Part shown: in pieces, positions 60,840 to 62,419 of the stretch
How positions within the stretch are numbered: position 1 is the first letter of the stretch
How the letters are laid out: every line of letters starts with the position of its first letter
Source of the DNA: Escherichia phage A6-6
Sequence record: PQ510734.1
Reading direction: 5' to 3' (one strand)
Length of the DNA: 64,000 bases
The notes under the pieces: generated by a model
What the model was told of the DNA's origin: nothing
The model's database searches: none
What the model saw: only the letters and a program-made list of their open reading frames with translations
Position numbers and translations under genes: made by a program

Positions 60840-61580
60840 ATGATTAGTGACTCTATGACAGTTGAAGAAATCCGTCTTCATTTGGGGCTTGCATTAAAAG
60901 AAAAAGATTTCGTAGTTGATAAAACCGGTGTTAAAACTATTGAAATTATTGGCGCATCATTTGTAGCAGATGAACCGTTTATTTTTGGCGCTCTTAATGA
61001 TGAATACATTCAGCGCGAACTTGAATGGTATAAATCTAAGAGCTTGTTTGTTAAAGATATTCCAGGTGAAACACCAAAGATTTGGCAGCAGGTAGCATCT
61101 TCTAAAGGCGAAATTAACTCGAATTATGGTTGGGCTATTTGGTCAGAAGATAACTATGCCCAGTATGATATGTGTTTAGCTGAACTTGGTCAAAATCCTG
61201 ATTCTCGACGTGGTATCATGATTTATACTCGTCCATCCATGCAATTTGACTACAATAAAGATGGTATGTCAGATTTCATGTGTACTAATACAGTACAGTA
61301 CCTGATTCGTGATAAGAAAGTCAATGCAGTAGTAAGCATGCGCTCAAATGACGTGGTCTTCGGATTCCGTAATGATTATGCATGGCAAAAATACGTATTA
61401 GATAAATTGGTATCTGATTTGAATGCAGGCGATTCAACTCGTCAGTATAAAGCAGGTTCTATTATATGGAATGTCGGAAGTCTTCATGTATATTCTCGTC
61501 ATTTTTACTTGGTTGATCATTGGTGGAATACTGGCGAAACTCATATTGTGAAAAAAGACTATAAAGGTGAGTGGAAATGA
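60840..61580 (+). CDS. 42: dCMP hydroxymethylase gp42
   Basis: 246-aa ORF; thymidylate-synthase-like fold motifs; length and position match T4 gp42. Confidence 0.9.
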   Translation: MISDSMTVEEIRLHLGLALKEKDFVVDKTGVKTIEIIGASFVADEPFIFGALNDEYIQRELEWYKSKSLFVKDIPGETPKIWQQVASSKGEINSNYGWAIWSEDNYAQYDMCLAELGQNPDSRRGIMIYTRPSMQFDYNKDGMSDFMCTNTVQYLIRDKKVNAVVSMRSNDVVFGFRNDYAWQKYVLDKLVSDLNAGDSTRQYKAGSIIWNVGSLHVYSRHFYLVDHWWNTGETHIVKKDYKGEWK

Positions 61581-62419
61581 TTCAATTCGTAATTCCAAGT
61601 TATCAGCGTGTCGGGGCAGTTTCTGCCCTTGATATGTTTCCGACTGATTATGAACCCCATATTGTAGTGCGTGAACATGAAGAAAAAGCTTATTATGATG
61701 CCTATGGGTCTAGAGCTAAAATTATAACTATTCCTGATGATGTAAATGGAATTGCTGGTACTCGTAAAGCAATTACTGATATGTATGCAGGTCAACGAAT
61801 TTGGATGATTGATGATGATACTACTATTCGTATGAGTTCAATGCGAAAGAAAGATGATCGTCGCTGCGTAGATAAAATTAATCAATTAACTCGTGAACAG
61901 TTCTATGAATTGATTCAATACGTTGAAGATGCCATGGATTGCGGGTATTATCATGGTCATGCTCGTTTACCAATTTTTAAAATTACTTCATCTTGGGGTA
62001 ATTATCGTGAAAATTCATATGGATTCACGAATACTTGGTATGACCTCGGGAAACTTACAACAGAACAAATTGGGTATGGAAAAATTGATTTATGCGAAGA
62101 TATGTATGCATTTCTCAATTTAATTAATCAAGGTTATCCGCATTTGGCCTTGTTCAAATATCTGGTTGTATCTGGAAAAGCACAGGCTCCAGGCGGATGT
62201 AGTTCAATTCGTAGTAATTCAAAACATAATAGAGCTCTTGAGCAAATCAATAGAGAGTTTCCAGAGCAAGCTCGTTGGAAAACATCGAATATTGAAAAGA
62301 GAAAATCGTTGGGTGAAGAAGACGAGCCATTAAAGGTTCTTCGCATGTGTGTTTCGCGCAAAGAAAAATCAGAAGCGTTTCATAAGTTTAATGCTATTCA
62401 TCCAATAGCAGTTGATTAA
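61577..62419 (+). CDS. GT-A-type glycosyltransferase at the beta-gt locus; possibly beta-glucosyl-HMC-alpha-glucosyltransferase as in T2/T6
   Basis: 280 aa from ATG 61577 (ATGA overlap with gene 42); DxD-type motif IWMIDDDTT; does not resemble recalled T4 beta-gt (351 aa). Confidence 0.5.
   Translation: MIQFVIPSYQRVGAVSALDMFPTDYEPHIVVREHEEKAYYDAYGSRAKIITIPDDVNGIAGTRKAITDMYAGQRIWMIDDDTTIRMSSMRKKDDRRCVDKINQLTREQFYELIQYVEDAMDCGYYHGHARLPIFKITSSWGNYRENSYGFTNTWYDLGKLTTEQIGYGKIDLCEDMYAFLNLINQGYPHLALFKYLVVSGKAQAPGGCSSIRSNSKHNRALEQINREFPEQARWKTSNIEKRKSLGEEDEPLKVLRMCVSRKEKSEAFHKFNAIHPIAVD

Follow-up and report, generated by a model that had tools for sequence, protein, structure and literature searches.

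The 64,000-nucleotide (nt) stretch of Escherichia phage A6-6 analysed here (sequence record PQ510734.1; hereafter the window) carries, between gene 42 and uvsX, an open reading frame (ORF) that very probably encodes a T2/T6-type beta-glucosyl-HMC-alpha-glucosyltransferase (HMC, hydroxymethylcytosine; the gene is called ba-gt below). Its product would add a second glucose to alpha-glucosylated 5-hydroxymethylcytosine (5hmC) to form gentiobiosyl-5hmC, and the phage is predicted to be gentiobiose-rich. The gene is not new; it has been named and characterised genetically in earlier work. The ORF listing opens the frame with a GTG (61571..62419, + strand), and the ATG at 61577 gives a protein of 280 amino acids (aa; MIQFVIPSYQR...HPIAVD), a start and a length that are also those of the annotated genes of T2, TB37, Solly and EL. 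The ba-gt start codon overlaps the gene 42 stop codon in an ATGA that is identical in T2 and T6, which suggests that translation of ba-gt may be coupled to that of gene 42. Residues 75-83 (nt 61799-61825) form the motif IWMIDDDTT, whose DDD is residues 79-81. A sequence-only reading of this DNA had described a 280-aa ORF with this motif and these two flanking genes, and all of these features were confirmed (Table 1).

The neighbourhood of the ORF is widely represented among sequenced phages. About 1.8 kb around it matches 639 phage records, with the ORF annotated at 98% identity as beta-glucosyl-HMC-alpha-glucosyltransferase, and tblastn finds a homologue in 689 phage records (at least 95% identical in 471 of them), so this is a real gene rather than a chance ORF. 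The identical protein (100%) is encoded by phages ime09, phiC600P9 and ZCEC15. Compared with T2 ggt (MH751506, AYD82639.1), 276 of 280 residues are the same (98.6%; substitutions from window to T2 are R11H, K92R, I101V and P251S), and the T6 gene in MH550421 agrees at 275 of 280 codons, an amber codon in that record being one of the five differences. Alignments of the window with T2 and T6 run across both the gene 42/ba-gt and the ba-gt/uvsX junctions at 97% identity, and the protein matches PHROG 842, ‘beta-glucosyl-HMC-alpha-glucosyltransferase’, at 5.6e-89. The T2 gene further resembles that of the window in its length, its position between gene 42 and uvsX, its ATGA overlap and its partner alpha-gt (99% identical); it differs by the four substitutions, one of which puts His11 where the window holds a family-invariant Arg11. 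T6 (MH550421; AP018814, the same sequence as NC_054907) shares the gene, the locus, R11 and P251 with the window, but has private N40, G55 and H106 and an alpha-gt of the T4 type with 35 differences from that of the window. The identities with T2 and T6, the synteny, a predicted GT-A fold (described below) and the presence of alpha-gt together bear out the sequence-only reading, which had proposed the T2/T6-type enzyme.

Table 1. Features of the ba-gt locus and of its partner gene in the window, all on the + strand
Feature	Coordinates	Strand	Description and evidence
ba-gt (ggt), beta-glucosyl-HMC-alpha-glucosyltransferase	61577..62419	+	280 aa; TAGT family; predicted GT-A fold
ba-gt translation start region	61564..61580	+	Shine-Dalgarno-like AAGGTGA 61564-61570; ATGA overlap 61577-61580; read from sequence
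Arg11 codon (CGT), N-terminal IPSYQR motif	61607..61609	+	Of 153 aligned family sequences, 151 have Arg and two have a gap
DDD (Asp79-Asp81), DXD-type motif	61811..61819	+	Asp in 151, 153 and 146 of 153 sequences respectively
Asp175, CEDMY motif, candidate catalytic base	62099..62101	+	Asp in 153 of 153 sequences
gene 42, deoxycytidine monophosphate (dCMP) hydroxymethylase, maker of the 5hmC precursor	60840..61580	+	Pfam Thymidylat_synt 1.1e-15
intergenic spacer before uvsX, end of the ba-gt unit	62420..62496	+	TATAAT 62438-62443; MotA-box-like TGCCTAA 62420-62426
uvsX, RecA-like recombinase, downstream neighbour	62497..63678	+	PF21134 4.7e-39; PF00154 2.4e-11
alpha-gt (a-gt), DNA alpha-glucosyltransferase, maker of the alpha-glucosyl-5hmC acceptor	48765..49967	+	400 aa; T2-type allele; Pfam AGT 2.4e-236

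The only Pfam match of the protein is TAGT (TET-associated glycosyltransferase, PF20691), at 38.8 bits against a gathering cut-off of 27.5 (E = 1.2e-9), with residues 3-207 aligned to positions 2-205 of the 205-position profile. So modest a match marks the T-even branch as a diverged subgroup of the family, one that goes with 5hmC made by gp42 and not with a TET/JBP dioxygenase. The family as a whole is far larger than this branch, with 2169 cluster representatives at E ≤ 0.001 and 745 at E ≤ 1e-10, mostly of 250-300 aa. Homologues about 64% identical adjoin a gene 42 homologue in phages of Klebsiella, Enterobacter and Citrobacter, and Serratia phage Muldoon has one at 47%.

T4 beta-gt (PF09198) was tried as an identity for the ORF and rejected: BLASTP found no similarity between the two proteins (best E = 3.4), tblastn of T4 beta-gt against the whole 64-kb window returned nothing, and the window protein has no match to PF09198, the profile that T4 beta-gt matches at 9.4e-98. 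The two genes are alike in adjoining gene 42, and their products in modifying hydroxymethylated cytosine in DNA from uridine diphosphate (UDP)-glucose with a beta linkage. T4 beta-gt is, however, a GT-B enzyme (PMC13216743), whereas that of the window models as GT-A, and its acceptor is bare 5hmC rather than alpha-glucosyl-5hmC. The sequence-only reading had called the ORF unlike T4 beta-gt and had named an alignment with that protein as the result that would speak against it; the BLASTP comparison sides with the reading. Close relatives of the phage are likewise reported to be without beta-gt (PMC13390438).

The same reading had raised the arabinosyltransferase of RB69 for comparison. The candidate for that enzyme, ORF003c, is a 366-aa protein, predicted as GT-B, whose gene maps near the start of the RB69 genome (PMC6024577), and we rejected an RB69-type identity on this published description, which sets ORF003c apart from a 280-aa protein that models as GT-A and lies at another locus. 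That the ORF might transfer a different sugar, such as arabinose, or be an inactive remnant is extremely unlikely: nothing was found in support of either beyond the earlier mention of RB69, the differences from ORF003c in length, predicted fold and locus stand against the former, and the ORF is intact with every conserved family residue in place. Moreover, arabinosylation of the Mosigvirus type is reported on 5-hydroxycytosine, not on 5hmC (PMC13390438), and the window encodes gp42.

A sequence search of PDB chains with the window protein gave nothing meaningful (best E = 0.76, to unrelated RNA-binding proteins), and the fold was therefore examined on a predicted model. An AlphaFold2 model was built from nine homologues, the word-indexed homologue search having given 11 proteins and hence a shallow alignment; it is moderately confident (predicted local distance difference test, pLDDT, 71.6; predicted template modelling score, pTM, 0.72), with low-pLDDT loops at residues 131-150, 192-211 and 238-248. 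In the model strands and helices alternate, and the chain is predicted to adopt a GT-A fold, with one nucleotide-sugar domain of Rossmann-like alpha/beta/alpha build in which a DXD motif follows a central beta-strand; DDD directly follows strand 74-78. Structural neighbours of the model are GT2 enzymes, mostly inverting. The earlier suggestion of a GT-A-like protein with a DDD motif thus agrees with the predicted structure.

Conservation was scored on 153 sequences, namely the window protein and 152 of the 2169 relatives that a profile search found among 1.84 billion representative proteins. Conservation is strongest, at 93-100%, at R11, R63, D79, D80, D81, D175, G186, G206, G207 and R212, and at none of these does the window protein depart from the consensus. 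As is general for the GT-A fold, the DXD motif at Asp79-Asp81 is most likely the ligand of the metal and of the UDP diphosphate. Asp175 would correspond to the ED/TED acid of GT2 enzymes with an inverting mechanism, which makes it the probable general base. The product of ba-gt would be a soluble, GT2-like glycosyltransferase of GT-A fold. An inverting mechanism that depends on a divalent metal is suggested by its DXD motif, by its GT2 structural neighbours and by the beta linkage of gentiobiose.

The proposed acceptor requires a partner enzyme, and the alpha-gt that had been placed at 48765 as T4-like is indeed present, 91% identical to T4 alpha-gt and 99% identical to that of T2. Counted in residues, it differs at 4 positions from T2, at 2-3 from Solly, TB37, QOTSP and NR1, and at 35-36 from T6 and T4. 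The gene occurs as two alleles about 9% apart, a T2 type (the window, T2, Solly, TB37, QOTSP and NR1) and a T4 type (T4, T6, EL and Geo). The allele does not simply track gentiobiose: T2 is low and TB37 high, and both have the T2 type.

By the established pathway (PMC13216743, PMC6024577, PMC11078745), gp42 makes 5-hydroxymethyl-dCMP, the 5hmC enters DNA during replication, alpha-gt adds an alpha-linked glucose to it, and in T2 and T6 ba-gt attaches a second glucose through a beta-1,6 linkage, producing gentiobiosyl-5hmC; the enzyme of the window would do the same from UDP-glucose. An inverting mechanism is favoured here because both the formation of a beta linkage from UDP-alpha-glucose and the mostly inverting GT2 neighbours fit it. 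The ba-gt of T2 and T6 puts the second glucose on alpha-glucosyl-5hmC (PMC13216743, PMC6024577), and deletion showed that T6 needs the gene to make gentiobiosyl-5hmC (PMC11078745). The DNA of the T6 deletion mutant behaves as alpha-glucosylated only, being degraded by Brig1 (PMC11078745) and releasing glucose to BapA (bioRxiv 10.64898/2026.02.25.707755). One could instead suppose that the enzyme of the window is a primary transferase acting on bare 5hmC, as is suspected of solitary TAGT homologues in phages without alpha- or beta-glucosyltransferase (alpha-GT, beta-GT), given a family of 2169 representatives at E ≤ 0.001 and a TAGT homologue without either of these enzymes in 288 of 753 genomes (PMC13216743). 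We consider this very unlikely in view of the 98.6% identity with T2 and the alpha-glucosylated-like DNA left by deletion of the T6 gene, on which both Brig1 and BapA act. The close relatives, moreover, keep about one third of their 5hmC unmodified and have no beta-glucosyl-5hmC (PMC13390438), which would be unexpected if bare 5hmC were the acceptor.

With transfer to alpha-glucosyl-5hmC as the preferred function, the question becomes one of quantity. The label ‘T2/T6-type’ spans gentiobiosyl-5hmC levels from about 5% (T2) to about 72% (T6). The earlier reading needs correcting here: the label names one class of enzyme but takes in two widely separated levels of gentiobiose, of which the sequences lead us to predict the high, T6-like one. 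The best guide is a set of phages with measured DNA. By liquid chromatography–mass spectrometry (LC-MS), Solly, TB37, QOTSP, NR1 and three others contain about one third 5-hydroxymethyldeoxycytidine (5hmdC) and about two thirds alpha-gentiobiosyl-5hmdC, with alpha-glucosyl-5hmdC at background only, and EL, BGP and Geo contain 5hmdC, alpha-gentiobiosyl-5hmdC and alpha-glucosyl-5hmdC at about 1:2:2 (PMC13390438). Beta-glucosyl-5hmdC was undetected in either group (PMC13390438).

The window is closest to the first of these groups. Two substitutions at non-conserved positions, K92R and I101V, are all that separates its ba-gt from those of Solly and TB37, and QOTSP and NR1 add D24N; the family has K92 more often than any other residue at that position, and EL and Geo share I101. 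Over the last 24 kb of the window no record comes closer than Solly (97.5%). In the Durham phages Solly, TB37, QOTSP and NR1 the gene order from alpha-gt to uvsX is identical to that of the window, and it stays so as far as gene 41 in the three records that are long enough. In EL and Geo the ba-gt has seven other substitutions and the alpha-gt is of the T4/T6 type. Because the family-conserved residues are all consensus and only two residues separate the enzyme from those of phages with measured DNA, we predict a Solly/TB37-like pattern, in which about two thirds would be gentiobiosyl-5hmC and about one third bare 5hmC, with little mono-alpha-glucosyl-5hmC and no beta-glucosyl-5hmC. The earlier expectation of a distinct DNA hypermodification agrees with the LC-MS data on these near-identical phages, in which alpha-gentiobiosyl-5hmC is found and beta-glucosyl-5hmC is not (PMC13390438).

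The contrary case is that the window carries a weak, T2-like ba-gt allele, so that its DNA would be mostly mono-alpha-glucosyl-5hmC with a few percent of gentiobiosyl-5hmC. The alpha-gt is indeed of T2 type (4 residues from T2, 35 from T6), and at ba-gt positions 40, 55 and 106 the window has the T2 residues, not those of T6. Neither likeness is peculiar to T2, however: the gentiobiose-rich Solly, TB37, QOTSP and NR1 also have a T2-type alpha-gt, and Y40, D55 and R106 are common to TB37, QOTSP and NR1, while Solly differs from the window only at 92 and 101. The residues private to T2, H11 and S251, are absent from the window, and His11 occurs only in T2/SV76 records, where 151 of 153 family sequences have Arg. 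We judge a weak allele improbable.

The low level in T2 itself may have its cause in ba-gt. The T2 ba-gt (MH751506, 3286-4128, – strand) differs from that of TB37 only at H11 and S251, and the T2 alpha-gt is 1-3 residues from those of gentiobiose-rich phages. Position 251 is not conserved, and Arg11 is essentially invariant (151 of 153 TAGT sequences). A tblastn search with the N-terminal 40-mer of T2 gave exact matches in only 8 of 686 records, every one from T2 or from the T2-like SV76, and 429 more were one residue off; a count of IMG/VR DNA patterns for His11 versus Arg11 (0 versus 6) was too small to be useful. As T2 shares its alpha-gt type with gentiobiose-rich phages and only H11 and S251 separate its ba-gt from that of TB37, a hypomorphic substitution in T2 is suggested. 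We therefore put forward, tentatively and as something short of probable, that the window holds the ancestral, fully active ba-gt in a gentiobiose-rich phage, and that the gap between T2 and T6 is due to the T2-private R11H, possibly together with P251S. We found no statement of this idea in the literature examined.

The T6 records carry lesions of their own. T6 is the textbook example of a phage rich in gentiobiose. Its three public records come down to two independent sequences, and ba-gt has a lesion in every one. In MH550421 (3138-3980, – strand) codon 10 is TAG, and the annotated coding sequence restarts at Met20 to give 261 aa; in AP018814 (3135-3974, – strand) and its RefSeq copy NC_054907 an in-frame 3-nt deletion reduces the near-invariant DDD to DD. 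The sequenced T6 stocks may have lost ba-gt activity, or the records may contain errors.

Several points weigh against our interpretation. The absence of T4 beta-gt covers the 64-kb window, and the rest of the genome may encode a beta-gt or a further transferase. The residue roles given above are provisional, since the ba-gt model is only moderately confident and has three low-pLDDT loops. The predicted proportions are based on four or five relatives from one study, and for ime09, phiC600P9 and ZCEC15, which carry the 100% identical protein, we found no DNA chemistry. EL and Geo have a similar ba-gt with a T4/T6-type alpha-gt, yet show a ratio of 1:2:2, and T2 has the same alpha-gt type as the window, yet only about 5% gentiobiose, both of which count against a firm prediction of the gentiobiose ratio.

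The ORF upstream of ba-gt is annotated as gp42 dCMP hydroxymethylase in T2, T6, T4 and the close matches. Downstream, the 77-nt spacer is 100% conserved in T2 and T6; its MotA-box-like TGCCTAA and its TATAAT may form a middle promoter, and a sigma-70 scan did not list this TATAAT. Across the region around ba-gt, a scan for promoters and terminators returned about what shuffled sequence did (promoters 13 versus 11.3, terminators 1 versus 1.1). Within the ORF, codons 13-18 contain a perfect 7-bp G+C-rich hairpin (61613-61629, GGGGCAG TTT CTGCCCT) followed by a T-rich stretch; it is kept in T2 and T6 and was flagged as terminator-like, and we do not take it as functional. In T4, compared over positions 4571-5236 of its record, the GIY-YIG homing endonuclease gene segA separates beta-gt from uvsX, where the window, T2 and T6 have the 77-nt spacer only; a segA-like sequence lies elsewhere in the window (7916-8197, – strand; 49% identity over 94 aa). 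Between imm and gene 42 there is a 49-aa hydrophobic ORF (60683-60832), annotated as ‘Phage protein’ in TB37, Solly, EL, Geo, QOTSP and NR1, and the equivalent gap of about 150 nt is left unannotated in the T2, T6 and T4 records.

Most glucosyltransferase-encoding phage genomes have an alpha-GT or a beta-GT together with a TAGT homologue, and the alpha-GT plus beta-GT pair of T4 is found in only 6 of 753 genomes (PMC13216743). The window therefore represents the common state in Tequatrovirus and T4 the exception. The sequence-only reading was right to see the arrangement expected of T2 and T6, but this arrangement is not unusual in Tequatrovirus (PMC13216743). As a textbook part of T-even DNA hypermodification, properly named in hundreds of genomes, ba-gt in itself matters little for the window. 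What is added here is a sharper prediction of the modification pattern and side observations on the T2 and T6 reference phages. The latter carry a warning for users that the reference T6 sequences may not encode an active ba-gt. A private change in T2 at an invariant Arg could likewise explain the old quantitative puzzle of its roughly 5% gentiobiosyl-5hmC; if this is true, T2 would be a natural hypomorph and not representative of a ‘low-gentiobiose type’. As for the phage itself, gentiobiosyl-5hmC is published to withstand both Brig1, a glycosylase specific for alpha-glucosyl groups, and the glucosidase BapA in vitro, and to be still a target of GmrSD/BrxU-type enzymes, so the predicted gentiobiosyl pattern would be relevant to the choice of phage against hosts with known defence systems.

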